A stretch of DNA of 35,578 bases from Candidatus Bathyarchaeota archaeon (GTDB taxonomy: Archaea > Thermoproteota > Bathyarchaeia > Bathyarchaeales > Bathycorpusculaceae). Where the stretch lies: contig CAVYXJ010000014.1 in the NCBI GenBank assembly GCA_963772455.1, positions 1-35,578 on the forward strand, given 5' to 3'. The position numbers and the translations under genes are program-made. Each line of letters opens with the position of its first letter. Position 1 is the first letter of the stretch. A model generated the notes under the pieces. It did not search any database and had not been told where the DNA came from. It worked only from the letters and a program-made list of their open reading frames with translations. This document shows positions 3,869-33,265 of this stretch, piece by piece.

Positions 3869-4001
3869 ACGGTAAATGGACCTACAAATAGTCAATTTAG
3901 CGCAAGTTAATTGCGTCGATAGGTATTGTTCGATTCTCTACCGAGAATATTATCGCTATGCTTTCCAAATCATTATCAACTACCAGCAAGAAATTTTGAC
4001 G

Positions 4002-4041
4002 CATAATTATCTTGTGGATTTCAAGGATAATTCTTAATTAA
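4002..4041 (-). repeat. Partial minus-strand copy of the AATTAT 24-7-24 symmetric site
   Basis: Reverse complement reads ttaattaagaattat...gataattatg, with the same 7 and 24 bp core spacing as 9831-9870. Confidence 0.7.
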
Positions 4042-4159
4042 TCCTATCAAAAAATTATTTGAAGTAATTTTGCTCAATATTCTTGCGTGCAATTGCAGTA
4101 GTATTTCAGAAGTACAGTTCTCATGTGGATGAGCTATTGGATTATCCTTCCCTTCTAGA

Positions 4160-4413
4160 GTTGGACTTTTTGCCGCAGTGCTTATCGTCACTTGGCTTCT
4201 CTTAGGTCCATTTCTTACAAAGTTTTCAGAGTAGACCTGTCAGATGAAAATAATTCTTTATGGACTATCTTGAAGATCAGGAGAATTCCAACACTAATTG
4301 CATTACATAATGGAAAGGAGTTCTGGAGAAGAGAAGCAACCTATATGATTGGTCTTCGAAAAGCTGACTTCAAAGAAGCAGATACGACCATGAAAACTGA
4401 AGCGCCTGAATAA
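4160..4413 (+). pseudogene. Degenerate thioredoxin-like gene fragment
   Basis: ORF 4192..4413 has the thioredoxin C-terminal half (FRVDL...IRRIPTLIALHNGKEFWR). An upstream out-of-frame VGLFAA strand lacks the WCxxC motif. Confidence 0.55.
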
Positions 4414-4624
4414 TGTTTGTCCTGACTAATTATTAATACATCCACCTTTCTCTTTTTTTTAACCAAACAGCGTTCTATTTCTGTTTGAATATTGATAATT
4501 TTCAAGAAGAAGACTCATTTGGAAAAATCAGATTATTTTATATATAAAGTTGAGTAATATTAGAGTTGACATAGCAATCTCATTCTTGAAATTGTTTTGT
4601 TAAAAATGAAAGGAAGAAAAAGAC

Positions 4625-5962
4625 TTGAAAACTTTATGTAATAAATCAATGACTATTTTCTTGACTTTAATATTGCTTTTCTCAATTGCAACTACAATTA
4701 TTACTTTGCCAACAGTTAAAGCACACACCCCCAAATGGGAGATTCCTACTTATGCTTATTTGAGCGTTGCACCAAATCCAATAGGTGTCGGACAACGATT
4801 GTTCATTGTCATGTGGCTTGATTCAGTTCTACCTGGAGCAGCTGTAGAAAACAACATCAGATATCATAATTTCCAACTTACAATTACAAAACCCGATAAT
4901 ACAATTGAAACAAAGGATTGGCCCCTCATTACTGACACTGCAGCTTCACAGCCTTTTCTGTATTACCCTGACAAAGCTGGTAATTACTCATTTAAGTGGA
5001 CGTATCTTGGAGAAACCTTTACTTGGAATGCGGCAAACACCCCTGGTCTTTCAACTGCAAATGCACTTTATGAAAACGACACATTTTTGCCATGCGAAAG
5101 CAAACTAGTTACAGTTACTGTTCAGGACGAACCAGTTTACTCGCCGCCTAGTAGTTATCCTATGCCCACTGAATACTGGACACGCCCAATAGAAGGAGAG
5201 AACTCAGATTGGTGGACAATCTCGTCAAACTGGCTGGGTAGACAATCGCCGCAACTTGCAGAGGAAAGACTCAGAAATCCAGAAGATGGTATAGGACCTG
5301 TCACTTCTCACGTTATGTGGACAAAGCCCATTCAAGAAGGAGGAGTTGTTGGTGGCACCAATAACTTCGTTGAAGGCGAAGGATACTATATTGGAACAAC
5401 TTACAATCGAAGATTCAACAATCCAATAGTGATGTATGGAGTACTCTACTATACAGAACCTGAAAGTATCGAGGTTACAACTAATACGGCAGGCGGATTA
5501 ACAAAGGCTGTAGATTTACGCACTGGAGAAGAACTCTGGTCACAGAGAATTCCAGGACCCAACAACTTATTCCAATTCGGTTATGTCTACACTTCTGGAG
5601 ATAACCCAAACATGCACGGCACATGGCCTGGCATTCTATTCACAGCAGACTTTGGAAGAGCATTCGATGCACGCACGGGAAACCCTCTATTTAATGTCAC
5701 TTACATGCCTGTAACTCGTTCCATTAGTCCATCAACTAGCGTAGGAACAGAGGCATTAGGCGAAGATGGCACAATATATCTCTATCAACTCAACGCTGCA
5801 GCCAAGTGGATAGCACAATGGAATTCATCTAAACTTTGGACATGGGGAACAACACCAACTATCCAGAAAGAAGTAGTTGGAAACATACCTATAACTCCAG
5901 CTGGCCTACAACATCAGCAGGAACTGGACAAGCGTGGAATTGGAACGGATCCGCATGGGTAG
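4625..5962 (+). CDS. Secreted PQQ-like beta-propeller surface protein, N-terminal part (frameshifted)
   Basis: Signal peptide, IPTYAYLSVAPNPIGVGQ, PTEYWTRPI, HVMWTKP and AVDLRTGEELW propeller motifs. The sequence continues in another frame near 5902. Confidence 0.8.
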   Translation: MKTLCNKSMTIFLTLILLFSIATTIITLPTVKAHTPKWEIPTYAYLSVAPNPIGVGQRLFIVMWLDSVLPGAAVENNIRYHNFQLTITKPDNTIETKDWPLITDTAASQPFLYYPDKAGNYSFKWTYLGETFTWNAANTPGLSTANALYENDTFLPCESKLVTVTVQDEPVYSPPSSYPMPTEYWTRPIEGENSDWWTISSNWLGRQSPQLAEERLRNPEDGIGPVTSHVMWTKPIQEGGVVGGTNNFVEGEGYYIGTTYNRRFNNPIVMYGVLYYTEPESIEVTTNTAGGLTKAVDLRTGEELWSQRIPGPNNLFQFGYVYTSGDNPNMHGTWPGILFTADFGRAFDARTGNPLFNVTYMPVTRSISPSTSVGTEALGEDGTIYLYQLNAAAKWIAQWNSSKLWTWGTTPTIQKEVVGNIPITPAGLQHQQELDKRGIGTDPHG

Positions 5963-7332
5963 CCGTACCTTCAGCTCAAGCAACACAAATATCAACTCGC
6001 TATGACTGGAACATAACAGTGCCAGGGTTACAATCAAACGCGGCAATTATCTATACAATCCTTGATGATATGATGCTGATTAGAAACGGTACTCTGCCAA
6101 CACCAAGAGTTCATGATCCTTACACTGTTTATGCTATTAACTTAAACACATCAAGAGGACAGAGAGGAGAAGTTTTATGGATGAAGAACTATGATCCGCC
6201 AGCAGTCTCACGAAGCTTTCCAGGAAAACTTATCGATACAGTGAACAATGTCTTTATTGGCTACGATAAAGAGGTCTCACAGCTAGTAGGTTTTAGTCTA
6301 GTCAACGGAGAACAATTATGGACTACTACTCTTCCTGCAGATTCTTCTGACTTTATCCTCTACAGTTACTTAGGTGCAATTGGTATGCAAACTGCTTATG
6401 GTCTAGTTTACTTTGGTGGCTACGGTGGAATAATGCATGCTTACGACACAAAAACCGGCGAACTAGCATGGACCTACGGCAATGGTGGACCCGGAAACAC
6501 AACTTATTCTGGTACTGGCTTAGCCTATGGCAGGTATCCGATATATCCAGGTCCCATCGCAGACGGAGTACTTTACTTAGATACTGGTGAACACAGTGCT
6601 CAACCACCATTATACAAAGACTCGCTAGTACGCGCCCTCAATGCTACAACCGGTGAAGAAATCTGGACTTTAACCGGATGGGGTGGTCACCATAGACGCG
6701 AAGGGTTTGCTGTTGCTGACGGCTTCTTAGTTTATCTCAACCACTATGACATGCAAGTATACAGTGTAGGAAAGGGACCCAGTGCTATTACAGTCGAGGC
6801 GCCAAAAGCAGCAGTAGAGTTAGGCAGATCTTTAGTCATTAGCGGTATGGTTACAGATATTGCTGCAGGGACAAAGCAGAATGAACAAGCTGCGCGGTTT
6901 CCATATGGTGTTCCAGCTGTTTCAGATGAAAGCATGAGCGATTGGATGAGGTACATTTACATGCAGAAACCACTGCGAACCAATGTTACAGGTGTTCCAG
7001 TGGCAATCAATATTGTTGACTCAAATGGCAATTATAGGCAAATCGGTTCGGTTACAAGCAACTCTGATGGTTTCTATAGTTTGACTTGGAAGCCAGACAT
7101 CGAAGGTCCATACACTGTTTATGCTTCGTTTGGTGGTTCGGCAGCTTATTGGCCATCACATGCCATAACCTCCTTTGCAGTTGATCCAGCACTACCAACC
7201 CCAGCGCCAACCCAAATACCCCCACAGTCAGCAGCTGATATCTATATACTACCTGGAATAATCGCTATAATCGTAGCAATTCTGCTAGTCGGCGTCGTTT
7301 TGGCGCTACTGGTATTAAAGAAACGACCATAA
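5836..7332 (+). CDS. Secreted PQQ-like beta-propeller surface protein, C-terminal part with C-terminal TM anchor
   Basis: Propeller motifs AYDTKTGELAW and ALNATTGEEIW, Ig-like segment, PT linker, TM helix and KKRP tail. The coding part probably starts near 5903. Confidence 0.8.
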   Translation: MDMGNNTNYPERSSWKHTYNSSWPTTSAGTGQAWNWNGSAWVAVPSAQATQISTRYDWNITVPGLQSNAAIIYTILDDMMLIRNGTLPTPRVHDPYTVYAINLNTSRGQRGEVLWMKNYDPPAVSRSFPGKLIDTVNNVFIGYDKEVSQLVGFSLVNGEQLWTTTLPADSSDFILYSYLGAIGMQTAYGLVYFGGYGGIMHAYDTKTGELAWTYGNGGPGNTTYSGTGLAYGRYPIYPGPIADGVLYLDTGEHSAQPPLYKDSLVRALNATTGEEIWTLTGWGGHHRREGFAVADGFLVYLNHYDMQVYSVGKGPSAITVEAPKAAVELGRSLVISGMVTDIAAGTKQNEQAARFPYGVPAVSDESMSDWMRYIYMQKPLRTNVTGVPVAINIVDSNGNYRQIGSVTSNSDGFYSLTWKPDIEGPYTVYASFGGSAAYWPSHAITSFAVDPALPTPAPTQIPPQSAADIYILPGIIAIIVAILLVGVVLALLVLKKRP

Positions 7333-7440
7333 AACAACAATCTTTCCCCTTTTTTAGTCTCAAAAAATGAAGTGTCTTAATAGCTAAATGTTATTTGAAA
7401 AGGAGCCAAAAGAGGTCATATTTTTTGAATCTGACATTAA

Positions 7441-7458
7441 AGGAAAGTTTTAATTAAT
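7441..7458 (+). promoter_or_regulatory. Putative archaeal BRE-TATA promoter
   Basis: Purine-rich aggaaag followed by ttttaatta about 30-40 nt upstream of ATG 7488. Confidence 0.4.
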
Positions 7459-7487
7459 GATGAGATTGAAATTATTAATGATTAATT

Positions 7488-8006
7488 ATGAAAGTCTCTA
7501 AATTAGTAGTTGCAGTGATACTTTTAATTGTCGTAGTGTTAAGTGCAGTTGCGATCTATTATTTTGCTCAGAACGGAACAGCCAAACCAGATGTTTTTAC
7601 TGTGCAGAATGCTACAAGTCTTCAGGTTAATGCTGATGTAGTTGGAAGTAACCAAGGTCCCTCAAACCCATTCAAATGGTTAGTAGCAGATATTGGAACA
7701 ACTGATCAAAAAATTCGTTTAACCATTTATGCTAATGCATCAGATCAAACTGGCTTTACTTACATTGTGAATTCGGAAAACCAGGAAGCTTGGAGAAATG
7801 AAAACGGCACATGGGTCAGTACCAATTATAACGAATTAAATAATCTCTGGGGATCCGAGTGGATTCAATACTTAAACCAGCTAAAGGCAAATTGGACTGG
7901 AAACGGAAACGTCTCGTTCAATAATTCATTTGGCGACAGTGTGACAGTAACGAATGTTGTTATAAATCCGGAGCTTGCTGATTCAACTTTTGAACCTACA
8001 ACCTAA
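7488..8006 (+). CDS. Hypothetical N-terminally anchored extracellular protein
   Basis: ATG start, N-terminal TM helix, many N-x-S/T sequons, oligo-T run after the stop. Confidence 0.75.
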   Translation: MKVSKLVVAVILLIVVVLSAVAIYYFAQNGTAKPDVFTVQNATSLQVNADVVGSNQGPSNPFKWLVADIGTTDQKIRLTIYANASDQTGFTYIVNSENQEAWRNENGTWVSTNYNELNNLWGSEWIQYLNQLKANWTGNGNVSFNNSFGDSVTVTNVVINPELADSTFEPTT

Positions 8007-8103
8007 TTTTTTCTTTTTTTATTCGTAGTGATAAAAAGTGTCATTTGTCAGAATAATATTCAGAGATGCTTTTTACTTTGAAAATAAAGCAGTAATTGTA
8101 ATT

Positions 8104-8655
8104 TTAGTTTAGTTCTTTTATGTTTGTGTCTTTAAGGTTAAATTCTATATGGTAGGTTTGATTTTCAAAAGTTGTAACATAAATGATTCTAACGGGCCAC
8201 AGGAGAATTTTGTCTAAATAATATGTAGCGTTAATTGCTTCGGTGGTGTAATCGTAGGCTATGCATTCTCGTTTTCCTATGTTTCTGACGGTTATTTCTG
8301 TATTATAGGTCTTTTCAAGTGTTACACCTTTGGGTTGAAAGTTGATGTTTGTTTTGTTGATCCATAACGTAGTTTGGTCGGATAATGTTGGTGTAAAAGA
8401 TGTAGTAATTGATGAGTTTGTCTTGATTTGTATGTGTGTGGTGTTTAATTCAGTAACTTGTATTGTTTCATCTAAGCTAATTGGTGTGGATAGTGCGTTT
8501 ATTTTACCTTCATATGTTGCATATGCCCCTTTAAACATCCAAGAATCAGCCATGTTTTGCTGGGTATTATCAATGGCTTGATATCCTATAATTAAAACTA
8601 ATGATGAAATTGCTAAAACCAAGGCGAACACAACAATTATCCAGCCTTTTCTCAT
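8104..8655 (-). CDS. Hypothetical N-terminally anchored extracellular protein
   Basis: N-terminal TM, WMFKGAYATYEG, Thr/Asn-rich beta-type sequence. Confidence 0.75.
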   Translation of the reverse strand: MRKGWIIVVFALVLAISSLVLIIGYQAIDNTQQNMADSWMFKGAYATYEGKINALSTPISLDETIQVTELNTTHIQIKTNSSITTSFTPTLSDQTTLWINKTNINFQPKGVTLEKTYNTEITVRNIGKRECIAYDYTTEAINATYYLDKILLWPVRIIYVTTFENQTYHIEFNLKDTNIKELN

Positions 8656-8757
8656 ACTTGACTAAAGAATGATTTGTGTTAAAAGGATTATTATTAATTA
8701 ACCAATTTTTAGCAATAAAAAAAATTGAGAGAATAGTTTACTTGACGCTAAAGTAGC

Positions 8758-9039
8758 TTATCCGAATTTTGTGAGCACTTCTCGACCTAAATCGGATATT
8801 TCGACAGCGTAGAAATCGTAAGGTCCCATTTTTTTTGGTGTATCAAGTATGTCGATGAGACCGGATTTTGACAGGTGCCTCACTGCGTCGTTTAGGCCTT
8901 CAGGCATCAAACCTGTCTTTCTATGTAAAATGTCCACTTTCACCAACAGACCTTTCTCAAATTCAGATAGGACCACGAGAACCTGTTTAACTGATTGGTC
9001 AAGCATATCAAAATCGTCTTGTTCAAAATCTTCAACCAT
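8758..9039 (-). CDS. Small winged-helix-like hypothetical protein
   Basis: AGGTG RBS before ATG 9039. HTH-wing pattern LHRKTGL...LNDAVRHLSKSGLIDI...ISDLGREVL. Confidence 0.6.
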   Translation of the reverse strand: MVEDFEQDDFDMLDQSVKQVLVVLSEFEKGLLVKVDILHRKTGLMPEGLNDAVRHLSKSGLIDILDTPKKMGPYDFYAVEISDLGREVLTKFG

Positions 9040-9224
9040 AAAAAACACCTACTCATAACATAAGCAGTCTTCCCATAAAAACCATTTGAAAGTTGAAATT
9101 TTCCTTGATCTTGGAGTTGTGTCAGTTTTCCTTAACAATGATATTCTTGGGCAGCTGAGGAGCGAGGGTGTTCTTTAGGAAGCCTTTAATTTTGTTGCCG
9201 TAATTTGTTTGGCAGGTTAATTCG

Positions 9225-9668
9225 ATGAATCCAGTTGTCATTTATTCGACAAAAAGTGGTAATACTGAAAAAGTTGCTATCGAAATCGCCCAAGAATTAA
9301 ATTGTAAAGCAATAAAAATATCGCCAGAATCAAATTTTTCAACAATATTACATAAGGATTTTGATCTTGTGTTTATTGGGACTTGGGTTCGCGGTGGAGA
9401 ACCAAGCCCGGATATGCTTTGTTTCTTAAAGCAGTTGAATTTTGAAGATAGTTGTAGACATTTTGCTCTTTTTATGACATGGGCTGGTGGCGGCAAAAGT
9501 GACTGCTTGACGTTTAATCGAGTAAAACAGCTTTTAGAAGCTAAGAATCAAAGGTTAATTGATGATTGCTTCAAATGTTTTGGGAAGACCTTTGGTTTAA
9601 CAAGGCGTGGGCATCCAGATGCAAAAGATTTATCCGACGCTGGTAAGTGGGCTAAGAAAGTGCGTTGA
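9225..9668 (+). CDS. Flavodoxin-family protein
   Basis: FMN-binding loop YSTKSGNTEKVA, DLVFIGT, FALFMT, C-terminal GHPD. Confidence 0.88.
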   Translation: MNPVVIYSTKSGNTEKVAIEIAQELNCKAIKISPESNFSTILHKDFDLVFIGTWVRGGEPSPDMLCFLKQLNFEDSCRHFALFMTWAGGGKSDCLTFNRVKQLLEAKNQRLIDDCFKCFGKTFGLTRRGHPDAKDLSDAGKWAKKVR

Positions 9669-9701
9669 TGTGCTTGAAAAATCATCCTGAACTGCTGATT
9701 C

Positions 9702-9785
9702 TATGGTTAATCTCGGCTTTGTCGTGATCAATACTTCATTTCCTGAGTCCAATAGTTTCTTTAGGACTTTAAAGCAAGCTTCCAA
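9702..9785 (-). pseudogene. Internal fragment of a probable radical-SAM/SplB-like protein gene
   Basis: Hand translation gives LEACFKVLKKLLDSGNEVLITTKPRLTI. The LITTK strand resembles SplB-like radical SAM proteins, and no intact surrounding gene is present. Confidence 0.45.
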
Positions 9786-9805
9786 CGTAAGAGCAGATAA
9801 TTAGT

Positions 9806-9870
9806 GATAATTATCCTTCCATTTTCAGAGCTAATTAAGAATTATGTTGGAAAATGGAGCGATAATTATG
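9806..9870 (+). repeat. Symmetric ~65-bp site (AATTA cores at 9809, 9833, 9840, 9864)
   Basis: gataattatc-cttccattttc-agagctaattaagaattatgttg-gaaaatggagc-gataattatg. The outer arms are 18/20 inverted repeats. Confidence 0.85.
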
Positions 9871-9918
9871 TGGAAAACATCAAAGCATAGTCGACTAAGG
9901 GACTTTCAAGGAGAGTAG

Positions 9919-9957
9919 TAATTTAAAATTATTGTGATAAAATAGCTGATAATTATT
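9919..9957 (+). repeat. Partial copy of the AATTAT site
   Basis: taatttaaaattat...gataattatt, with cores at 9920, 9927 and 9951 (spacing 7, 24). Confidence 0.55.
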
Positions 9958-10059
9958 GGTTTTAACTTTTTTCCAGTTGTGTTCCAGCTTTGGAACGTTT
10001 TGTTTCTTGAGTAGAACTAAAAGCGGCTATTCCAAATAGGGATATTTGAGAGTACAACT

Positions 10060-10830
10060 ATGGTGACAAAGAAAACTAAAATAATCTTTGCAGTAGCCGT
10101 GATTGTTGTATTTATTGTAGTTGCCATTCCAGGTTTTTATCTTATAAACCCCCCATCAGCTTCTAAACCCTTTACGTTCAGCCTGAGTATGTATCCAAAT
10201 AACGCAACAATTATGCAAGCACAGAACTTAACAATCAGAGTGGATGTCGCCTACCTTAAAGGCACGCCTGAACCTGTCACGCTCTCGGCGAGTGATGGTC
10301 CAAACGGAACCATCTACCAATTCAACAGTCAAACGGGAACTCCCAACGCCACGAAGCCATTCAGCAGTAACCTAACAATTTTTGCGCCAGCTTCAGCAGC
10401 CTCTGGCTCTTACTTCATCGATGTCTCGTCGAATACAAGTGCCCAAACCTGTCGAGCCACATTCACCTTAATCGTGGTGGCTGCAGAAATCCAAGTTTCT
10501 GGTATAGTCACAATAATATCTCAAGTAACCATTAATCAAGTAACCATTGATGTTATCCCAACGGATATACTCTTTGAAAGTAACACTACCGGCCAAGCCT
10601 ACCAAGTAAAAGTTCACAGATTTACCGATACAAGCGTTGCGCCTGGAAGAACTGGAAATTATTCTATCTCACTGCCTAACCAGCAAAGCTACCGCGTCGA
10701 ATTTTATTGCTTCAGCTATCCTCACTTCGTTCCAGTCTTTCGTGTAGCTACAAGCGGCATTGAAGACGGGTACTTCACAGTTGACTGCGGCGCAGGCATA
10801 GACTCTTTGGTCGCAAACTTTATAGGCTAA
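10060..10830 (+). CDS. Hypothetical membrane-anchored extracellular protein with Ig-like segment
   Basis: N-terminal TM. FSLSMYP...VTLS...SNLTI...GSYFIDV pattern typical of archaeal surface Ig-like modules. Confidence 0.75.
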   Translation: MVTKKTKIIFAVAVIVVFIVVAIPGFYLINPPSASKPFTFSLSMYPNNATIMQAQNLTIRVDVAYLKGTPEPVTLSASDGPNGTIYQFNSQTGTPNATKPFSSNLTIFAPASAASGSYFIDVSSNTSAQTCRATFTLIVVAAEIQVSGIVTIISQVTINQVTIDVIPTDILFESNTTGQAYQVKVHRFTDTSVAPGRTGNYSISLPNQQSYRVEFYCFSYPHFVPVFRVATSGIEDGYFTVDCGAGIDSLVANFIG

Positions 10831-10838
10831 AAGCCGAT

Positions 10839-11309
10839 ATGGCAAATAAAACGAGGATTCAGTTGGACATAATTCAGTTACTTTGTGTATTTGGTTTAAG
10901 TATAATTGAGTTGTGGATTGCTATTCCTGCAGGTTTTGCCTTTAATCTCAATCCGGTTGCAATTGCAGTTATGGCTTCATTGGGTTCCATTTTTGGCGCT
11001 ATAATTGATGTTTGGGCTGGTGACAAGCTCCGAAGCAGAATAATAAAATGGCGCTATGGAGAAAATGGCGGTCCTAAACAAGGTCGACTCTTTAAATTAT
11101 GGAATAGATATGGAGTAGTTGGATTAGGTTTGTTTTCTCCATTGCTCTTAGGTGCACCACTTGGAGTTGCGGTAGGACTTGTTTTTGGTGCTGAAAGGTG
11201 GCGGTTATTACTTTGGATAAGTGTGGGAATAATCGCATGGAGTATTTTGTTGACTGCAATTGGTTCTGTAAGTTTTGAAGTAATAAAGACTCTTCTAAAA
11301 TGGTCTTAA
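10839..11309 (+). CDS. Putative small multidrug export family membrane protein
   Basis: IELWIAIPAG and WNRYGVVGLGLFSPLLLGAPLG motifs, about 4 TM helices. Confidence 0.75.
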   Translation: MANKTRIQLDIIQLLCVFGLSIIELWIAIPAGFAFNLNPVAIAVMASLGSIFGAIIDVWAGDKLRSRIIKWRYGENGGPKQGRLFKLWNRYGVVGLGLFSPLLLGAPLGVAVGLVFGAERWRLLLWISVGIIAWSILLTAIGSVSFEVIKTLLKWS

Positions 11310-11350
11310 TTCCTAATTACCATTTTTGGACTGAAGTTACCAAGAACCAA

Positions 11351-11382
11351 AAATTATGTTGCAATTACCCAAAATAATTATG
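11351..11382 (+). repeat. Partial (right-half) copy of the AATTAT site
   Basis: aaattatgtt...aataattatg, with cores at 11352 and 11376 (24 bp apart). Confidence 0.6.
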
Positions 11383-11418
11383 CTCGACAAGTCTAAAAAA
11401 ACCCTGCTATGTTTTAGT

Positions 11419-11590
11419 CTACTCATTTAGTATTGTCGTTAATAGTCGTCTTTCTGCTTTTATTCGATCTTCTATCAAAGCAGAGCTTTTCAATCTCAAC
11501 TTAACTGCGAGCTCTCTTGGCTCAATCCTTCTTGGAATATCATAGTAACCCTCTCTAAACGAAGTAACAAGCACTTCTCGTTGCTTCTTT
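11419..11590 (-). pseudogene. C-terminal HTH fragment of a Bat/HTH_10-type transcription regulator
   Basis: KQREVL...GYYDIPRRI...ELA..L......KAERRLL is the HTH_10 signature. The N-terminal domain is missing. Confidence 0.65.
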
Positions 11591-11645
11591 CTTTGCTCAG
11601 TCGTGCCGTAATACTCACGCATCGAAAAACCGCTTAACTTGCACT

Positions 11646-11710
11646 AATAATTATCCCAAAATTTTCTAGCCTAATTAAGAATTATGTTAGTATTTCCTGC
11701 GACAATTATA
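11646..11710 (+). repeat. Second complete AATTAT 24-7-24 site
   Basis: aataattatc...ctaattaagaattatgtt...gacaattata, with offsets (0, +25, +55) identical to 9806-9870. Confidence 0.85.
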
Positions 11711-11819
11711 CCAGAGACGCTTTTCTTTCTTGTTCCTTCGCCTTTTTTAATTGTTTTCCCAGTTTTTAATGTATCCTTTTAAGAACCCTTGCGCCATTGT
11801 TTTAGTGAAGGGTTTAACT

Positions 11820-12992
11820 ATGGGAGAAAAAAATGACTCACTCATAGCATACAATATTTTGGAAAAAAGAATAATTAACACCGGATTGTGCACTCTTTGC
11901 GGCGCTTGTGAGGCCGCGTGTCCAGTGGGTGCCTTGCATATTGAAGATGAAAAAGTCAAGCACACCTGCGATTGCTCTAAAAACATTGATTTATGTCCCA
12001 TATGCTACGAAATTTGCCCTCATTCAGAGGCGCTTTTACTCAAAAGTTTGAGTGTTGTGGCTGATGCTCCGATAAAGAATGAAGCACTTGGGTACTACCG
12101 TAAAATAGTTCTCGCTCAAGCGGTTGATCCTAAAATAAGGGAACTAAGTCACGGTGGAGGGGTAGTTACTTCTCTGCTGAAATTCGGTATCGAAACCAAA
12201 ATTTTTGATAGTGCTATTGTTTCTCAGGGCGAACCTGAAAACCCTGCAAAACCTAAGCCTTCTGTAGCAACGGTGCCAGATGACGTACTTTCAGCGATAG
12301 GGAGCAAGTTTTTTCCCTCCTCAATAGCTACAGCGTACGGAACTGCAGTTAAATGCTATGGAAAAACAAATATTGCCTTTGTTGGCGTGCCCTGTCATGT
12401 GCTAGCTCTTCGAAAACTGGGGGCATGGCAGCATAGAATTAGCGGTAACTTACGAATAACTATTGGGCTCTTCTGTTTTGGCACACTATCTTTTGGTGCT
12501 TTACTGAAATATCTAAAAAACAAATATAATATTGAATTATCGGATATCAAGCACTTACGCTTGACTTCGGAACTTGTAATTCAAACAAGTAAAAGCGAAC
12601 TTAGGATTCCATTGTCTGAGATTTCAAATGAAATTTTGCCAAGCTGCCGAAAATGTACAGACTTCACCTCAGAACTCGCAGACATATCCATTGGAAGCGC
12701 TTATCCTTTGAAGGATTGGTCAACGGTAATTATCCGAACAAAAGACGCAGAAAACTTCTTTTATAAAGCGGTGGAAAACCACGTCATCAGCACACGGGAT
12801 ATCGAGGAAGAACCAAATGTCATCGAAGGAGTAACGCTTGCTGCGATAGAAAAACGAAAGTCGGGTCTCAAAAAAGCTAAAGAAATTGAAGAAAGCACGG
12901 GGCATGTCGTTTCAGAGCCGTCTATCTATGAAGGAGTCTTTGTTTTAGAGGATCTGATTTCAAGGTTCTCTTTGTTATCCGGCAGCAGCTAG
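11820..12992 (+). CDS. Coenzyme F420 hydrogenase/dehydrogenase beta-subunit (FrhB/FdhB) family protein with N-terminal 2x[4Fe-4S] domain
   Basis: CTLCGACEAACP, CPICYEICP, GGVVTSLL, VGVPCH, IGLFC and CRKCTDFTSELADISIG motifs. ATG 11820 is preferred over TTG 11751. Confidence 0.9.
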   Translation: MGEKNDSLIAYNILEKRIINTGLCTLCGACEAACPVGALHIEDEKVKHTCDCSKNIDLCPICYEICPHSEALLLKSLSVVADAPIKNEALGYYRKIVLAQAVDPKIRELSHGGGVVTSLLKFGIETKIFDSAIVSQGEPENPAKPKPSVATVPDDVLSAIGSKFFPSSIATAYGTAVKCYGKTNIAFVGVPCHVLALRKLGAWQHRISGNLRITIGLFCFGTLSFGALLKYLKNKYNIELSDIKHLRLTSELVIQTSKSELRIPLSEISNEILPSCRKCTDFTSELADISIGSAYPLKDWSTVIIRTKDAENFFYKAVENHVISTRDIEEEPNVIEGVTLAAIEKRKSGLKKAKEIEESTGHVVSEPSIYEGVFVLEDLISRFSLLSGSS

Positions 12993-13722: not shown

Positions 13723-13764
13723 TTTTGTTTAGTTTTTCTGAGAGTTTTAGTTCGCATGGACCGC
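13723..13764 (+). repeat. Dispersed 42-bp repeat, copy 1 (copy 2 at 33676-33717)
   Basis: 27 identical bp (ttttgtttagtttttctgagagtttta), then gttcgcatggaccgc versus ttccgcgtggaccgc. Confidence 0.85.
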
Positions 13765-14176
13765 CAAAACAGTTCTTCAAGTTTGTTGCTTGGGAATGAG
13801 TTCCCGCGTTTATTTACTTTGGAGGATTTTTTTCCAAGCAGCACAATCTTTGTTTCTTTCAAACTTAAGCATTACATAAAGCTCAAGAGAACAACAGTTG
13901 AAAAATATGTATTGATGTTCTTTCAGGCATTTTTCATTGAGATACTGTCTGCTAGAAGAAGAAGTTCTGTTGGTGCACCAAAAGTTGGGTGAGTTTGTTT
14001 TAAGTTGCTTTTTTAATTTGGGCTTTTGGAAAGCTGTAGGTTGCGTCTGCACCCGTCTTTGCACGTCTTAGTGCGTCTTAGAAAGTCTCGGGAAGTCGGT
14101 GTGTTTAATGTTGTTGTATAAAAAGTTGGATAGAAAAGACAAAGCCCCCATAAGAGAGTGCGAAGGATGTTTTGTT

Positions 14177-16750
14177 TTATGGTTTTGGGGATTTTTTGGC
14201 TCTGCTTTTGAAGACAACCGCTACGACTGCTATTGCTGCGACTAGTGCGATGGGAATTACATACAGTAGCCATAGAGGAAGTGAATCATTGTTAGTATTG
14301 GATACCTCATGAACATCGCCCATTGCCATAGTTATTGTGTGTGTGCTGTGTGAGTAGGTGAAGGATATGAGCCATGAGTCTGTTTGGGATTCACTAGTGA
14401 AGCTTGTTTGGGTGCCATCAATGTATGCTTTGAGTGTTGAAATGTCGCTTAGAATTGTTTTTGGGATATAGATGTTGACATAGCCTTTTGTTCCTGAAGC
14501 TCCAGAGGCAATGAATCTTAATTCTTTGGTATCTGGGTTGAAGGTAAACTGTGTTATGGTTGAGTTAGAGGTTAAAGTGAATACGTTGTGTTCTAGATCA
14601 GGTGTTAATGCTAAGTTAATGGTTTTGCTTGCTGCGTTCATTGTTGGTGTTTTGTCTGAGGTTGCTTTGATGAGGTAGTTTCCGGTTACATCTGGGTTCC
14701 AGATGGCTTTGAAAGTGCCGTCGGGTAATGTTTTTACTAGTGTTAAGCTTTCCCATGTGTTGCCGCCGGTTACGCTGTATGAGATTAGTATTGGTGAGTC
14801 AGCGACGGGGTTGCTGTTGAGCATTAAGTTTCCGCTTATTTCGACTTTGGGGCCGGTGGCTGAAGTTGTGCTTTTGCAGGTTAGGGTTATTGTTGGTGTT
14901 GGTAATGAAGGGTTGGAGGTGGGTGTTGGGGTTGGGTTGTTTGTTGGTGTTGCGGTTGGTGTAATTGGGATAGGTGTTGGTGTTGGAGTTGGAATTATGG
15001 GTGCTGTAACGTTTATTTTGGTTATTAGTTTTGTTTGTGAATCCTCGATGGATAAGAAATGTGGTCCACCGCTAGCGGTTGGAATTGTTACGGTTGTATT
15101 GAAAGAGCCTTTTATGTTGGCACTTGTTGTACCGATTACTTGGGCATTTTGCCATTCTTGTCCGGTAACTGTACCTACTACAGCAGTGCCGTCAAATTTG
15201 ATGTAAACTAGGCCAGGGTAGAACCATTTGCCAGAAATAAATAAGCTATTGCCAGATTTTATACTTACAGATGAAGATAAATCTGTTCCGTTACCGAAAA
15301 GTGCGTAGGCAGTGCGGGATCCAACTTGTTGGAGACCTCTTGCGAATTCGACGTAGTCTGCATAAGAGTAGGGGACATCGTTTATTTGTGTTCTAAAAGA
15401 AAGTGTGGTAGAATAGTTGCTGTCAGCATTAGTTGTTGACTGCTTTAGGTCGGGCATCTCTGCGTTGAAGGATATTCTTCCTGTTGGATCAGAGATGGTG
15501 GAGGTCCAGTAGTTCCAAATTCCATATGTAGGATCTAAGTAGTATACGCTAACAGAGGTTGAAGAGGGGTAGCCTGAGCCGCTGTATTGGACAATTGCGC
15601 CTCCGGGTCCTGAAGCGGGTGTAAGTTGTAATGAGGCAGTGGATACGAAGATTTTCACAGTTATTCTTGTTTGGGAGTCTTCTATGGCTAAGTAGTGTTC
15701 TCCTGCATTGGCGTTTGGAATTACTACGTTGGTGTTAAAGCTGCCAGTTGCATTTGTGGCGGTGGTTCCGATTATGTTTGCGTTTAACCATTCATTACTG
15801 GAGACTGTTCCGACGACGTTAACGCCATCCCATCGGATGTATATTGGGCCTGGGTTGAACCATTTTCCTGAAAGGGCAATTGTGTCCCCGATAATGGTTC
15901 TTACGTTTGAAACTAAGTTTGTGCCATTGCCAAAAAGTCCATAGGCGGTTGTGTTTCCAACTGTCTTTAATCCGCGTTGATATTCGTTGTAGTTGGTGTT
16001 GCTCAATACTTGAGTTCCAACTGTTGATCTATAGTAAATTGAGGTGTACGTTTCTGGGTAATCTGAGGTTCCAAGAGATTTCTTTAAATCTGGAGCGGTT
16101 GATGTTGCCCAGATTTGTCCGGATGCGTTTGCTATTGTTGTTGTTAGGTAATTCCAAGTGTTAAAAGCTGTGTCAAGATAGGATATTACTACTGTGGCTC
16201 CGACAGGGTAGTTTGAGCCTGTGAATGTTATTGGGATTCCTCCGGGTCCTGAAGGAGGCGATATGCTTAGTTGGGCATTGTAGTTTATGGGGTTGACTGT
16301 GATGTATGTGTCAGTTACGGCGACAGATGCCCCGATTTGGTCGACGGCTTTGATATAGTAACTTCCAAGGGGAGTTGTTGAGGGTATGCTGCCGTTTATC
16401 CAGTTGTTCCCAACAAGCCAAACTCCGTTTTCACCTGTATAGTTAGAGATTCTAGTTGTGTCTGCTAGATCGTATGGTGAGAAAGTCGGAGTGTAAACTG
16501 AACCTGATGTAAGTTGTGTGGTGCCATCAGGGCTTAGAAATAGGAAAAATTGAGGTCCATCCCAGATGATTTCCCCCAAATATAGATTTATGTTGTCTCC
16601 AGCTTGGACTTGTTGTCCAGGAATGCTGGCGCCTAAAGTGTTAATTTTTATGTTTCCGGTTGAGGATGAAACAAAAGTAAGATATGTTGGTAAAATTAAT
16701 GCCAGTATCAATAAAGCTATTAAGAAAATTTTCGTTTTGCCCTTTAGCAT
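14177..16750 (-). CDS. Large cell-surface protein with tandem ~213-aa Ig/IPT-like repeat, PT linker and C-terminal TM anchor
   Basis: Signal peptide; SGPGG...GNGT...SGKWF...IEDSQT block present twice; (PT)n linker; TM helix with basic tail. Confidence 0.85.
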   Translation of the reverse strand: MLKGKTKIFLIALLILALILPTYLTFVSSSTGNIKINTLGASIPGQQVQAGDNINLYLGEIIWDGPQFFLFLSPDGTTQLTSGSVYTPTFSPYDLADTTRISNYTGENGVWLVGNNWINGSIPSTTPLGSYYIKAVDQIGASVAVTDTYITVNPINYNAQLSISPPSGPGGIPITFTGSNYPVGATVVISYLDTAFNTWNYLTTTIANASGQIWATSTAPDLKKSLGTSDYPETYTSIYYRSTVGTQVLSNTNYNEYQRGLKTVGNTTAYGLFGNGTNLVSNVRTIIGDTIALSGKWFNPGPIYIRWDGVNVVGTVSSNEWLNANIIGTTATNATGSFNTNVVIPNANAGEHYLAIEDSQTRITVKIFVSTASLQLTPASGPGGAIVQYSGSGYPSSTSVSVYYLDPTYGIWNYWTSTISDPTGRISFNAEMPDLKQSTTNADSNYSTTLSFRTQINDVPYSYADYVEFARGLQQVGSRTAYALFGNGTDLSSSVSIKSGNSLFISGKWFYPGLVYIKFDGTAVVGTVTGQEWQNAQVIGTTSANIKGSFNTTVTIPTASGGPHFLSIEDSQTKLITKINVTAPIIPTPTPTPIPITPTATPTNNPTPTPTSNPSLPTPTITLTCKSTTSATGPKVEISGNLMLNSNPVADSPILISYSVTGGNTWESLTLVKTLPDGTFKAIWNPDVTGNYLIKATSDKTPTMNAASKTINLALTPDLEHNVFTLTSNSTITQFTFNPDTKELRFIASGASGTKGYVNIYIPKTILSDISTLKAYIDGTQTSFTSESQTDSWLISFTYSHSTHTITMAMGDVHEVSNTNNDSLPLWLLYVIPIALVAAIAVVAVVFKSRAKKSPKP

Positions 16751-18699: not shown

Positions 18700-20364
<1,665 letters not shown>

Positions 20365-23901: not shown

Positions 23902-23990
23902 TTTGTTTTAAGGTTTTGGAGATTTTTTGATTCTGCTTTTGAAGACAACCGCTACTGTCGGAGTGGAAGTTGATTGTGTGGGAAGTGTTA
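23902..23990 (-). pseudogene. 3' remnant of a paralog of the 857-aa surface protein
   Basis: 23902-23955 matches 14171-14224 at 50/54 nt. It translates to ...PTQSTSTPTVAVVFKSRIKKSPKP*. Confidence 0.8.
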
Positions 23991-27371: not shown

Positions 27372-27400
27372 GGGTGGAATAAATTTTGATCCATCCAACC
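27372..27400 (+). repeat. 17-bp palindrome copy with extended arms
   Basis: gggt-ggaataaa-t-tttgatcc-atccaacc, 10 nt after the DUF3786 stop. Confidence 0.75.
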
Positions 27401-27613
27401 GATCAAAAATCTCCACATGAGCTAAGCGAGCTTTCCACTGTTACATACTGCAGTAATTTTTTTGATTTAAGTTTAATTAAAAAAAGTACCTCGACTATTC
27501 CTGATAAATAACTTGTTGTGTGATTGCGAAGGGGCAACCACAACAACTTAAATCGCACTGCTATCTAAGTAAAATCTAATTATTTTATCTTCATTAGATG
27601 GAGGTGAAAATTT

Positions 27614-27877
27614 ATGATTTTTGTGAGTCTGGGTAAAATGAGAAAGAAGCCTGACAAAGCAATGGCGGGGAACGCGACCGAAAAGGTAGAAGAGTTCAAG
27701 AAAAAAGGAATAAACATTCTCAATTGGTATTGGACGTTAGGGCGATATGATACAGTCGTTGTATTCGAAGCAGCAAACGAAAAAGAAGCATTAAAATTCT
27801 CCTTAGGTGTTGCGGAGTTCGTAGCTACAGAGACCTTGGTTGCCATTCCCAGGCAAGAAGCCGTAGAGCTTCTTTGA
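27614..27877 (+). CDS. GYD-domain protein
   Basis: GGAGGTGA RBS; YWTLGRYDTVVVFEA and TETLVA signatures. Confidence 0.88.
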   Translation: MIFVSLGKMRKKPDKAMAGNATEKVEEFKKKGINILNWYWTLGRYDTVVVFEAANEKEALKFSLGVAEFVATETLVAIPRQEAVELL

Positions 27878-27957
27878 GATAAATCGTTATCTCGTGCGAT
27901 GTTTATGGAACAATAGTTCATCCCTTTCTTAATTAAAATTTTTTCCCACACGTGCCT

Positions 27958-28221
27958 TTAGATAAAACCGTTTTGTTTGCACGATTTCTCAACTTCTATG
28001 AATATTATGTTATCAGCATAGTTTTGGCGAAACTTGTCAAGTACGTCTCGGAGATCTTCTTTGCTTATCCCGCTAATTCTTATTTTTTCAACTAGCCACA
28101 CTAAGACCATATGTCCGTTTAAAAGACGGTTAATAGCGAATTCTACATTCTCTTTCATGCTTTCTTTGTCAGATTTCACCTTATCCAAAACAACACACCT
28201 TGACAAACAATCAATAAACAA
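27958..28221 (-). CDS. Hypothetical protein (start uncertain, possibly ATG 28158)
   Basis: Helical, charged ORF; no motif recognised. Confidence 0.5.
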   Translation of the reverse strand: MFIDCLSRCVVLDKVKSDKESMKENVEFAINRLLNGHMVLVWLVEKIRISGISKEDLRDVLDKFRQNYADNIIFIEVEKSCKQNGFI

Positions 28222-28252
28222 ACTACTAATTCGTTAGGATTTGTTCTTTAGG

Positions 28253-28353
28253 GGATTAAAATTTAATCCAACCAACCAACTACTTCACGCTTAGCAAATA
28301 AGGCATCCTTAATAGTAGACATGGTTTAGCATACATAGTAACATAAGCATACT
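28253..28353 (+). repeat. Palindrome plus type-A extension
   Basis: Perfect ggattaaa-a-tttaatcc, then aaccaaccaactacttcacgcttagca...aaggcatcctt...agtagacatggtttagcatacatag. Confidence 0.9.
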
Positions 28354-28469
28354 AAATCGGAATTGAGTATAGGGACCTTTTAAACTAACGTTTTATCACA
28401 AGTGATTTAAGCTAAGAACAATAAACTGCTATTTATTGTGTTTCAGTTTTTGAGGAGGAAGTCAGTTAA

Positions 28470-28709
28470 ATGAAAAATACCTTGATAATCCTTGGAGCTC
28501 TGTTATCCCTCATAATATCAAGCGTAATCCTTCTAATCTATCTCTGGACTCAGGTGCCCATGGGCTTGCCGTTGGCTCTTCTGCCATGGGCTTTGGTCTT
28601 TGTAATCTTCGCTTTTGTCGGTTGCTTTATTTGGCTGGCTAACGGGTTGCGACGAAAGAAGAAAGCTGAAACTCCTCAGCTACATACGAAAAGTCAAATG
28701 AAGGGATGA
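28470..28709 (+). CDS. Small 2-TM hypothetical membrane protein
   Basis: GAGGAGG RBS, two hydrophobic helices, RRKKK stop-transfer. Confidence 0.7.
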   Translation: MKNTLIILGALLSLIISSVILLIYLWTQVPMGLPLALLPWALVFVIFAFVGCFIWLANGLRRKKKAETPQLHTKSQMKG

Positions 28710-28848
28710 GGGCATCCTTTCTTTATTCTTTGTATTAGAACCTGCAAAAGGCGATCGAACTTTTTTCTAAGTAGTTTTTTAATTAACTTCGTGGATTATG
28801 CTCTTTAGAGTTTGAATTGTAACTCAGAAAGTCAGAATTAGTGCGGCG

Positions 28849-28948
28849 AATTTAAATTTTAATCCAACCAACCAATTCAACGTACCGCAGGTACACGTAA
28901 AAAAGCTCTATTCAGCGTAGACACGGTTCGGCATACATAGAGCATACT
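28849..28948 (+). repeat. Palindrome plus type-B extension with A-like tail
   Basis: aatttaaa-t-tttaatcc-aaccaaccaattcaacgtaccgcaggtacacgtaaaaaagctct...gtagacacggttcggcatacatag. Confidence 0.9.
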
Positions 28949-29007
28949 CAAGCTTGAGAGTGAATTGAAAATGGATAGCTAATTCGAAATTATTGGAGAC
29001 AAAAGTC

Positions 29008-29385
29008 TTAGATTATCTCCTTGACTTCGATGTGTTCCTTGTCGTCGTGGACTTTGTTCGTTCTTATGTCGAGCCAGCAATGGAATATGTCTTCGTTGTG
29101 CAATCTGTGGCTATGAGGTTCAGGTTGAACGTGGGATTTTATCATGCTAAAGCATACATCGGAAATTATCACCTTAAAGTTTCCGTTCGGTAGAACTTGA
29201 ACGGTTACGTGGCTTTCGTCCGTTGGCAAGTTTCCGTAGGTGCCTTTGTTTTCGATGCTGAGTTCTCGTTCTAGCCAGAGCTCTAAGAGTTGGGTGTTTG
29301 GTCGTTTTGGTTTTTTTATTTCTTTGTTGATGAGGTCTAGGTACTGTGGGGGGATTGTTAACTCGAATGTTTTCACGTTAAGCAC
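29008..29385 (-). CDS. Hypothetical protein with His-rich C-terminus
   Basis: 125-aa ORF with GTG start; SHVQPEPHSHRLHNEDIFHC...VHDDKEH. Confidence 0.6.
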   Translation of the reverse strand: MLNVKTFELTIPPQYLDLINKEIKKPKRPNTQLLELWLERELSIENKGTYGNLPTDESHVTVQVLPNGNFKVIISDVCFSMIKSHVQPEPHSHRLHNEDIFHCWLDIRTNKVHDDKEHIEVKEII

Positions 29386-29479
29386 CTGTTTTATTAGAAA
29401 CTGACAAATGTGGTATAAATACAGATTGGAGAAGCTTTCTGATGGCGAGTTGGATGGTGGTTATTGGTGTGTGCACAGG

Positions 29480-32032: not shown

Positions 32033-32170
32033 ATACACGAGTTCCTTTTTGCTGTGGAGACAAACCCAATTGTCTTCTATTGGAGTTGAAGCCATCCACT
32101 TTCTATTAGTAATTGCTTACTTGAAAAGAGAAAACACTTAAAGGTCTTTTGTCACTGTTATTTTTTATCA

Positions 32171-33013
32171 GTGGTGAAAAAAGTGAAAAGTATTGACCTT
32201 CAAAAAGCACTTGAAACATTAGGTTTAACTGAATACGAGGCCAAAGCATACATCAATCTGATACAAATAGGCACTTCTAACGCAGGTAACCTTAGTAAAC
32301 TTACTGAGATACCACACTCAAAAATATATGAAGTCCTAATTCGCCTCGAAAAAAAGAGATTATTAGAAGTCCAAAAAGGCCGACCGCTTTTCTTCAAAGC
32401 GATAAAACCCTCCGCCGCCTTAAAAGGAGTCGAAATCGAGCTAAAAGACAACCTAAAACGCGAACTCTTGAAAAGAAAAAATGATTTAGAAGTCCTCTAT
32501 GAAAAAAAGATGGGACAAATATCTCAAGCTCATACAGAGCTTGGAGAATTGGACAATTTTTATGAGAAAAATGCTGCTTTCGAACCCTCCGAAGAATTCA
32601 TTTGGACGATTCGAGGAAAAGACAACTTGAGTAGCCAGGCCAAGGAGATCATTCAAAGTGCTTCGGCAGAGGCGCGGTTAATGATGCCCCTTGATGATTT
32701 CTCTGAATTGATATCGACAATCAAAACTGTATCCTCAAAAGGAGTTAAGGTTCTACTTGTGATTCATGAGCTTTCTGAGAGTGTGAGGAAACTCAAAGAC
32801 TCAGCTGAAATTTTCTACGACAAGTCTCCGTTGCCTACGAATTGCGGAATGATTTTAACTGATGATAAGAGAGGTATGTTTATTTCAGAAGACTCTAATA
32901 GTGGGTTTAAAGCATCAAGTAAGAGTGTCTTGATGGTTCTTGCCCAATTCTTTCAGCATGAACTTGAGGAGTCAGCGAAAATAGAACTTAATCAAATTAC
33001 CCCTACAGATTGA
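32171..33013 (+). CDS. TrmB-family transcriptional regulator
   Basis: LGLTEYEAKAY...IPHSKIYEVLIRLEKK wHTH plus one effector domain; divergent from the ATPase. Confidence 0.9.
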   Translation: MVKKVKSIDLQKALETLGLTEYEAKAYINLIQIGTSNAGNLSKLTEIPHSKIYEVLIRLEKKRLLEVQKGRPLFFKAIKPSAALKGVEIELKDNLKRELLKRKNDLEVLYEKKMGQISQAHTELGELDNFYEKNAAFEPSEEFIWTIRGKDNLSSQAKEIIQSASAEARLMMPLDDFSELISTIKTVSSKGVKVLLVIHELSESVRKLKDSAEIFYDKSPLPTNCGMILTDDKRGMFISEDSNSGFKASSKSVLMVLAQFFQHELEESAKIELNQITPTD

Positions 33014-33142
33014 GTCAACCCAAGTAAAAGGACCGAATTCAACATAGTCTCGATTAGACCAATGAACAACTAGATTACACAACATCGAGAAGATTGACCA
33101 TTAAGATAACCAACAAAGCACTCCGTCTTGTTACTCTTAGTT

Positions 33143-33217: not shown

Positions 33218-33265
33218 GACTACTGAGAATTCCCTTAAGCCACCGAGCGTAAAAAATGTGTGTGT

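Follow-up and report, generated by a model that had tools for sequence, protein, structure and literature searches.

In the lambda-type scheme of integration, a tyrosine integrase recombines attP with attB to yield attL and attR. The attC sites of integron cassettes function as single-strand hairpins with paired outer and inner boxes, and dif sites occur once per chromosome, in the terminus region, and are conserved in relatives. Gene modules that depend on Xer recombination are also described, among them the pdif modules of Acinetobacter plasmids and the IMEX elements, and Correia elements are small repeats that bear promoters. For Archaea, the available part of PMC2958812 gives dif as a 28-bp imperfect inverted repeat with 11-bp arms and a 6-bp spacer, flanked in Thermococcales by AT-rich inverted repeats of about 23 bp. 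Clusters of attC sites without an integrase (CALINs) are reported in Archaea in the part of PMC9668308 that was available, where the definition of a CALIN requires two or more sites that are separated by less than 4 kb and have open reading frames (ORFs) in between. Here we describe an element of about 65 bp that occurs in two full copies in a 35,578-nt contig (CAVYXJ010000014.1; hereafter the window) from a Candidatus Bathyarchaeota archaeon (GCA_963772455.1). Bathyarchaeia are abundant and uncultured, and gene exchange among them is little known. On balance, we favor the view that these elements are the joints at which small mobile gene cassettes integrate and are exchanged, with a 14-bp core as the putative crossover segment and arms that would be carried by the cassettes. 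In its logic the element is closest to integron arrays and to integrase att sites, and it lacks the features that define attC/IntI and dif. Among the papers listed in searches on archaeal integrons, mobile promoters and Bathyarchaeia attachment sites, we found none that describes it.

The source genome is a metagenome-assembled bin of 24 contigs, totaling 2.45 Mb at 39.7% G+C, with 92% completeness and 3.4% contamination; the window is the whole of its contig C14. It was compared with a sample of 101 genomes for the genus and 16 genomes for other genera of the order. Where labels are needed, G000 denotes the source genome, other G numbers its congeners, L numbers loci and C numbers contigs.

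Structure and occurrence of the element

The two window copies, E1 and E2, were recovered by repeat finding as a 63-nt direct repeat (9807-9869 and 11647-11709) with 75% identity; the repeat measures 63-66 nt, with outer limits at 9806-9871 and 11646-11711. A sequence-only reading of this DNA had claimed an identical geometry and centre for both, and this was confirmed: AATTA motifs lie at 9809, 9833, 9840 and 9864 in E1 and at 11649, 11673, 11680 and 11704 in E2, and the 18-nt centre is the same in each. Enrichment over an AT-matched null, the check proposed with that claim, was also found. The strict pattern of four AATTA motifs occurred twice in the window versus zero times in each of 100 dinucleotide shuffles, and five times in the 2.45-Mb genome versus zero times in each of six order-3 Markov genomes, the genome-wide expectation from AATTA frequency being 1.3e-4. 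The exact 14-bp core TAATTAAGAATTAT has eight genomic occurrences, all eight of them in members of the family. A profile search of the genome added C5_up, C5_down and three copies of the right half, including one on the minus strand at 4002-4041 of the window.

The element is composed of a left arm, the 14-bp core and a right arm, and sites with all three parts are called full. Its left arm begins with the box ATAATTATC and continues through about 16 variable bases, which contain ATTTTC, to the core; its right arm consists of GTT, about 13 bases of the type GGTAAATNCTGCG and the box GATAATTAT. Comparison by eye of 51 and then 88 distinct instances revealed that the centre and the right arm are the invariant portion. 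A left arm was present in 26 of the 86 instances that were also used for counts of neighboring genes, and sites that have a left arm and no right arm occur as well. The core is a 5-3-5 dyad, which can equivalently be described as having a 7-nt spacer and weak symmetry farther out. Between the two arms, ATAATTATC and an ATTT(T/A)C block are mirrored, and the bases adjoining the core are the least conserved part of the left arm. Inverted linkers noticed earlier in E1 (tccattttc/gaaaatgga) are present, but they proved to be a one-off and not a trend. Specifically, across 34 full elements the left and right linkers were complementary at 7.53 of 19 positions versus 7.68 with shuffled partners, and 1696 of 2000 partner shuffles reached the observed value. 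A hairpin or cruciform site was rejected because of this lack of left-right covariation, and a miniature inverted-repeat transposable element with a variable target duplication was rejected because the flanks of full copies show only the core duplicated.

A companion box (9919-9963 in the window) recurs at other loci, at a distance of about 57 nt past the right arm; a strict pattern detected it in 13 of 104 instances, and more were seen by eye. Its reverse complement, also compared by eye and not by computation, resembles a decayed left arm plus core. The module formed by the leader and the companion box follows unrelated left contexts at L036, L072, L095 and L063. Structured RNA was rejected as an explanation, since RNAalifold predicted 0 pairs for 10 such modules and Rfam gave no match at E<=1 in the window between 3800 and 12200.

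The element family is confined to one Bathyarchaeia genus. With at most one mismatch, the 17-nt centre was found in 56 of the 101 genus genomes, in 32 of the 62 with a completeness of 90% or more and a contamination of 5% or less, and in 0 of the 16 genomes from other genera of the order; a reversed-pattern control gave seven matches in total. A 25-base version of the element matched 95 stretches in a collection of species-representative genomes, and the 80 listed comprised 75 from Bathyarchaeota/Bathyarchaeia, two from an 'uncultured archaeon' and three under bacterial bin names. Element-bearing genomes originate from soil, peat and bog samples. Congeners have between 0 and 12 centre matches, which are clustered, and arrays of three to seven sites were seen in G001, G002, G010, G086 and G108. 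In the sequences retrieved for comparison, adjacent sites no more than 10 kb apart were co-oriented in 33 cases and opposed in one, and a hand tally of neighboring sites among the matches listed gave 47 in the same and one in the opposite orientation.

Empty and occupied sites upstream of ilvC

A divergent ketol-acid reductoisomerase gene (ilvC), identified by Pfam KARI_N/KARI_C matches in the G013 copy, was found in 25 of 86 instances with the core 38 nt upstream of its start. The sequence-only reading had set promoters with conserved flanking synteny against its own proposal; synteny of this kind was found on the ilvC side only, and the opposite side differs in almost every species. Congeners that lack the element have the 14-bp core at the same place, with a native flank that begins with CCCT(C/G)AAA and no arm. 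The combination of core plus CCCT was present at exactly one site in each of 21 of the 101 genomes and gave 0 matches in the control. Thirteen of these sites are armless and adjacent to ilvC (three of them assigned by eye after the pattern had missed them), four have a full left arm before the core and native flank (G057, G112, G051 and G086), one has a partial left arm (G002), and three are of other kinds. No match to the 17-nt centre was found in 11 of the 13 genomes with an empty site.

The sites with a full or partial left arm form the far end of a cassette or array, and the ilvC-side site, made up of core plus right arm, is located 723 nt upstream in G057 and 720 nt upstream in G112. When the occupied locus L049 was compared with the empty locus L163, the ilvC flank plus core showed 78% identity over 74 nt, and the core plus native flank showed 96.4% over 28 nt; the insert at L049 is 723 bp long and carries a DUF1801-like gene on the other strand. 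In G086 the array is longer, and reads from ilvC as core-right arm, two ORFs, left arm-core-right arm, two further ORFs and left arm-core-native flank, followed by a neighbor gene that is also conserved in G000 and G013. The ilvC array of G000 itself extends from C7:146251 to 142876. The flank at its end gave local alignment scores of 25-32 in 7 of 13 comparisons with native flanks and of 8-16 in the other six, whereas shuffled sequences scored about 9 on average and 16 at most. The occupied ilvC sites of G000 and at least four other genomes have the pattern of attB, attL and attR, and such a series of empty and occupied sites is what is expected if a left arm-core-right arm unit recombines with a bare core.

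Homology between loci and species breaks inside the centre

Comparison of break points in relatives, the second check put forward with the sequence-only reading, revealed that homology between loci and between species breaks inside the centre. In a pairwise flank test of the 88 instances, likeness was confined to the left in 62 pairs and to the right in seven, and extended to both sides in two. Homology was lost just past the core or within the right arm in the left-only pairs, and at the left core edge in the right-only pairs. Contigs from four DNA sequencing runs of soil, wetland and sediment piled up on E1 and E2, where their summed depth was 37-167 versus about 10-30 between the elements. 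The likeness of these contigs to the window ends at 9831/9832 (12 contigs from three runs), 11645/11646, 11688-11692, 11709 and 9870. One joint leads from 10826 to an element centre and another connects an element right arm (11708) to 10847; in relatives an element separates the genes for the 256-aa and 156-aa proteins, which in the window are 8 nt apart. One metagenome contig has the companion box followed by 21 nt and then by a further core (joint 9963 to 11673). The contig joints show other cassette orders. Joints that go back on themselves have the linkers of other strains and so give no evidence for an excised circle, and no circle junction of the same strain was seen among the contigs of the four runs.

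Within G000, a swap of modules was found between contigs. Matches by blastn joined C14:4166-9870 to C9:18636-12917 at 97.3% identity and C14:11646-13709 to C9:12029-9969 at 91.6% identity, with an inter-element content of 1775 bp on C14 versus 887 bp on C9. On C14 this interval contains the genes for the 256-aa protein, an Sm_multidrug_ex/VTT protein and a 67-aa HTH_10 protein, so that E1 and E2 do flank the gene pair at 10060-11309 and an HTH reading frame, as had been claimed from the window sequence. The C9 interval contains a nitroreductase-like gene (named from its sequence, without a Pfam run), and this module is 96.4% identical over 996 nt to C5:45507-46501, a copy that is flanked by two elements too. 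Base-by-base comparison revealed that C9_E1 combines the left arm of window E1 with the right arm of C5_up, whereas C9_E2 combines the left arm of C5_down with the right arm of window E2. Only around core positions 6-8 do the two junction intervals overlap; this argument depends on two single-base differences in the C5 copies that could have arisen by later mutation. The difference between C14 and C9, whether these are paralogues or strains, is a module swap at the elements.

A mechanism consistent with these data would run as follows. The native primary core, sitting 38 nt upstream of ilvC at the TATA position, would recombine with a cassette that has a left arm, core and right arm, and the products would be the core with the right arm next to ilvC and, at the far end, the left arm with the core and the native flank. 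Successive integration events would give rise to co-oriented arrays, and exchange from core to core would swap cassettes between loci, as may have occurred between the E1-E2 interval and its C9 twin. The free cassette would presumably be circular. Within this reading, conservative site-specific recombination is the most likely chemistry, since arms are found only on the side of the element and conservation is poor in the bases beside the core. The putative recombinase is probably of the tyrosine type, with the arm boxes as its binding sites.

Comparison with described recombination systems

The likeness to lambda-type att sites consists in the same short core in element and chromosome, box-bearing arms on the element side only, hybrid sites that flank the insert in direct orientation, and relatives with empty sites. 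The same core was found in the 13 empty sites and at both ends of inserts, the far end being represented by 4-5 sites. However, the Bathyarchaeia inserts are 0.7-2 kb in length with zero to two cargo genes and no integrase gene, the sites are reused into arrays, the arms are much shorter (about 50 bp in total), and the target is a promoter core instead of a tRNA gene. No integrase was found on the element or tracking the sites; an enzyme that acts in trans or belongs to a new family is conceivable.

As in integrons and CALINs, co-oriented sites lie less than 4 kb apart (1840 nt for E1 and E2, with the three- to seven-site arrays in congeners), small accessory cassettes are stacked at a primary site, and an integrase is absent from the vicinity of most arrays. 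The cargo is distributed patchily among relatives and includes many genes of redox type by Pfam name; of 100 congeners, one had a homologue of the 156-aa gene at E<=1e-20, at a locus (L134) that was uninformative. In contrast to attC, there is no conserved hairpin pairing and the arms are exchanged independently. The crossover would fall in the middle of the element, so that unlike in an integron each end of the cassette would retain half a site. The role of primary site falls to the ilvC promoter and not to attI beside intI, and gene orientation is mixed. No integrase gene was seen at the arrays examined, and the IntI-specific domain itself was not searched for. The pdif and IMEX systems share with this element small gene modules that are bounded by short recombinase-type dyads and moved without an integrase of their own. 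They differ in that the Bathyarchaeia sites are direct instead of alternating in inverted orientation, the core is not 11-6-11, and no accompanying Xer gene was found.

Search for an enzyme and assessment of the alternatives

Several observations weigh against the reading of the elements as cassette joints, and the enzyme is the foremost subject among them. No recombinase is linked to the sites. Among the 2373 reading frames that flank them, no recombinase gene recurs, the only recurrent genes being ilvC and its neighbors, and no integrase was seen among 74 Pfam-scanned ORFs around the arrays at L024-L030. Phage_integrase genes are found in 94 of 101 congeners, whether or not these bear elements, and element-rich G086 (90% complete) had none at E<=1e-5. 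In G000 a single ORF reaches the Pfam cut-off for this domain, with 27.2 bits versus 27.1. When used as a query, this protein found its family in 49 of 101 congeners, and it was not found in the element-rich genomes G002, G012, G086 and G108; it was rejected as the recombinase since its presence fails to track the elements. The ORF contains a stretch of 14-15 nt like the right part of the centre (nhmmer E=7.5), which we took as chance. Beyond the enzyme, the source is a metagenome-assembled bin with some contamination, so that C14 and C9 could represent two different strains instead of paralogues, and congeneric genomes are non-independent observations. The outer ATAATTAT box is a further place at which linker and leader classes are shuffled, in agreement with homologous exchange at any conserved block. 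Some modules measure only 81 or about 170 bp from centre to centre and contain no ORF, which is too small for plausible circles. Finally, with the core at the TATA position, its conservation upstream of ilvC needs no recombination function.

The last point leads to an explanation that we consider unlikely, though less so than the others below, namely that the elements are portable promoters or operators. The core would then supply TATA and the B recognition element (BRE), the arms would be back-to-back promoters or regulator-binding sequences that travel with accessory genes, and homologous recombination, for example after DNA uptake from relatives, would make joins at the sole conserved sequence with no dedicated recombinase, in agreement with the outcome of the enzyme searches. 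The core is at -52 to -39 of the ilvC start in element-free and element-bearing species alike, and across 380 gene starts of G000 that are anchored by a Shine-Dalgarno sequence, TATA-like hexamers are most frequent at -55 to -41; the core is probably the TATA region of ilvC. No RNA sequencing run was listed as containing this stretch of DNA. The 38-nt spacing is repeated between the C15 site and a divergent DUF1801-like gene, the HTH_10 gene begins 24 nt outside the left-arm box of E2, and the companion box has a canonical TTTAAAA followed about 24 nt later by GATAATTAT. Moreover, the arms are mirror-alike at their boxes without hairpin covariation, as is the case for duplex protein-binding sites, and near-identical upstream sequence before unrelated genes resembles the 'promoter reuse' by 'mobile' promoters in prokaryotes that is reported in the available part of PMC3575422. 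Nevertheless, the distance expected of an archaeal core promoter was found for ilvC only, and a different explanation is needed for the arms and the dispersed copies. Of the 86 instances, 47 have a first large ORF on the right that is opposed to the element, only 34 have a co-oriented one and five have none; in every co-oriented case the open frame starts at least 88 nt from the arm, and seven of the 26 full elements either sit between genes that converge or lack any gene that they could serve. An FrhB-like gene downstream of E2 keeps its own upstream region, which from window position 11725 onward, 15 nt past E2, is shared with an element-free counterpart in G086 whose protein is 92% identical. 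An operator of a regulon tied to particular genes was rejected, since 0 of 24 FrhB-like loci from 23 congeners had the element upstream. Mobile promoters are also unlike these elements, which enclose whole modules from both sides, are not oriented by their neighboring genes and form an empty and occupied series with core duplication. The mixed gene orientation leaves the 33:1 co-orientation of sites unexplained, the native ilvC site and the cassette share 14 bp only, which is short for recurrent homologous integration, and the arms are on the cassette side alone, as in attP.

Non-autonomous, transposon-like cassettes are a less probable explanation again, in our estimate very unlikely. In this case the arms would be imperfect terminal inverted repeats, the core a target-site duplication and the enzyme an integrase or transposase of strict target choice provided in trans, on the model of casposons, which have 14-15-bp duplications and tandem insertions. 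The cassettes are indeed flanked by a direct 14-bp repeat, their arms mirror each other at the boxes, and arrays at one target agree with successive insertions that each restore the target. In G086 (L196; C36:7096-7282), a Cas1-like fragment of 45 residues that contains stop codons was also seen, about 40 nt past a left arm plus core site that ends an array. However, two other Cas1 fragments (L197 and L198) have no site nearby, and Cas1, present in 43 of 101 congeners including element-free ones, was not found in element-bearing G000, G002, G010, G012 and G013. No transposase family was above the cut-off in G000, where Resolvase, Y1_Tnp and Cas1 gave no match and a TnpB-type domain gave one match below the cut-off. 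In addition, the 14-bp repeat around inserts is always the same sequence, and the left-arm bases beside it are the least conserved, although transposon tips are usually the most conserved. The sequence-only reading had likened the centre to Xer dif sites and had proposed a tyrosine-recombinase-like core with accessory boxes. Its recombination joint and its symmetric boxes of the protein-binding type are supported, and the Xer/dif part is not. That the elements are archaeal sites for the resolution of chromosome dimers, or modules mobilized by a host Xer protein, is largely refuted and in our view exceedingly improbable. The centre does form a short dyad whose middle is asymmetric, and some copies have a right arm that can be viewed as a palindrome of the form 11-6-11. 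Against this, the break points lie in the 5-3-5 centre and not in the palindrome, G000 has eight cores and congeners have up to 12 centre matches instead of one site, 45 of 101 congeners have no centre match, the sites are in variable regions and in a promoter, and G000 has no strong Xer-like gene, its best candidate being the sporadic integrase-like ORF at the cut-off.

Reading the elements as cassette joints leads to a larger proposal, possible but short of likely, that this soil and peat genus runs its own integron-like gene capture. The ilvC-promoter core would be the dock, the site of about 65 bp would be split at insertion, the enzyme would come from an unrecognized family or be borrowed from unbinned mobile elements, and cargo would spread between species. 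If the elements are integration joints, this would be an archaeal form of cassette capture that is neither an integron, having no attC and no IntI, nor a provirus. It would have a defined dock, defined cassette ends and a natural series of empty, singly occupied and multiply occupied sites; recombination would be testable with synthetic substrates, and the enzyme search would be tractable. As joints, the sites would also flag hot spots of accessory genes in metagenome bins and account for the breaks of assemblies at their positions, since many contigs share the element. If instead the promoter explanation were true, archaeal promoter reuse would have an unusually clear example in a module of 38-66 bp that 56 of 101 species carry at unrelated genes.

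Features of the window

Positions of the element parts and of the genes between them are given in Table 1. The partial copies listed in the sequence-only reading (4002-4041, 9919-9957 and 11351-11382) are real at all three places, but they belong to three different kinds, namely a solo site, the companion box and a degenerate internal site. We read the left arm of E1, which is identical to that of C9 E1, as the putative right-hand terminus of the upstream module on the flavodoxin side, the right arm of E1 as the likely left-hand terminus of the following cassette, and the left arm of E2 as the corresponding right-hand terminus of the window's cassette. The degenerate site also appears as an inverted repeat match in the window.

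Table 1. Parts of the element, neighboring genes and shared segment in the window
Feature	Position	Strand	Details
Solo site, opposite orientation	3999-4042	-	core 4027-4040 plus right-arm variant
Segment of about 9.5 kb also on contig C9	4091-13709		same order except for the inter-element stretch
E1 left arm (U_L)	9806-9831	+	outer box ATAATTAT 9807-9814, 17-nt linker
E1 core TAATTAAGAATTAT, proposed crossover segment	9832-9845	+	exact 14-bp match
E1 right arm (U_R)	9846-9870	+	GTT, 13-nt linker, box ATAATTAT 9862-9869
ORF-less module	9871-9990	+	leader of the recurrent 'gtggaaaaca' class plus companion box 9919-9963
Cassette gene, 256 aa	10060-10830	+	no Pfam family
Cassette gene, 156 aa	10839-11309	+	Sm_multidrug_ex/VTT membrane protein (Pfam)
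Degenerate internal site	11347-11381	+	decayed core plus intact right arm; AATTATGTT 11352-11360, ATAATTAT 11374-11381
HTH_10 protein, 67 aa	11419-11622	-	Pfam 1.5e-9
E2 left arm (U_L)	11646-11671	+	
E2 14-bp core	11672-11685	+	exact match
E2 right arm (U_R)	11686-11710	+	outer box ACAATTAT 11702-11709; common to C9 E2

The right-arm variant of the solo site was also found in G080 (L183). Behind this site is a 35-codon remnant that, by eye, resembles the N-terminus of a receiver domain. It belongs to an ORF-less module of 81 bp from centre to centre (window 4003-3896, minus strand) that recurs across many species, at L046, L047, L071, L073, L108 and L028 among other loci, and that looks like a propagated remnant of the start of a response-regulator gene.

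Three proteins were considered as candidates for binding the element and were rejected. The HTH_10 protein gave only its self-match among the flanking frames. The other two, a PNPOx protein and an ArsR-like protein, are encoded at the head of the arrays of G001 and G010 and had no homologue in G000 by tblastn. These arrays (L024 on G001:C1 and L025 on G010:C19) are syntenic, with cassette content that differs between the two species, and they begin beside the PNPOx gene, which is divergent from the gene for a 254-285-aa protein with a C-terminal winged helix of the ArsR type.

The FrhB-like gene past E2 (FrhB/FdhB-like, 4Fe-4S; window 11820-12992 and C9:10741-11853) encodes 390 aa in the window, and the frames of congeners have about 505-520 aa. 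Residues 1-363 alone of the window protein were matched and the C9 copy carries an in-frame TAG; in both G000 copies, truncation or rearrangement may have affected the 3' end. Two tyrosyl-tRNA-synthetase-like genes (C5:44235-45323 and C15:13213-14130; named from sequence, without a Pfam run) are each located downstream of an element copy, with flanks that are 82.7% identical.

The window also has other repeats. A family of 52-nt direct repeats with 67-87% identity, unrelated to the element, is present at 13723-13774, 33676-33727 and 35507-35558, possibly the 'first site family' of the sequence-only reading, and one of its copies sits just beyond 13709, the right end of the segment shared with C9. 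Several short repeat families co-occur within 27378-33345, at about 28255-28340, 28851-28940 and 33174-33345, and look like repeated upstream regions of small genes. A 54-nt direct repeat of 93% identity is found at 14171-14224 and, 9.7 kb away, at 23902-23955. Tandem repeats with a period of about 156 nt occupy 19210-20174, within a 554-aa ORF (18700-20364) that has a collagen-triple-helix Pfam match.

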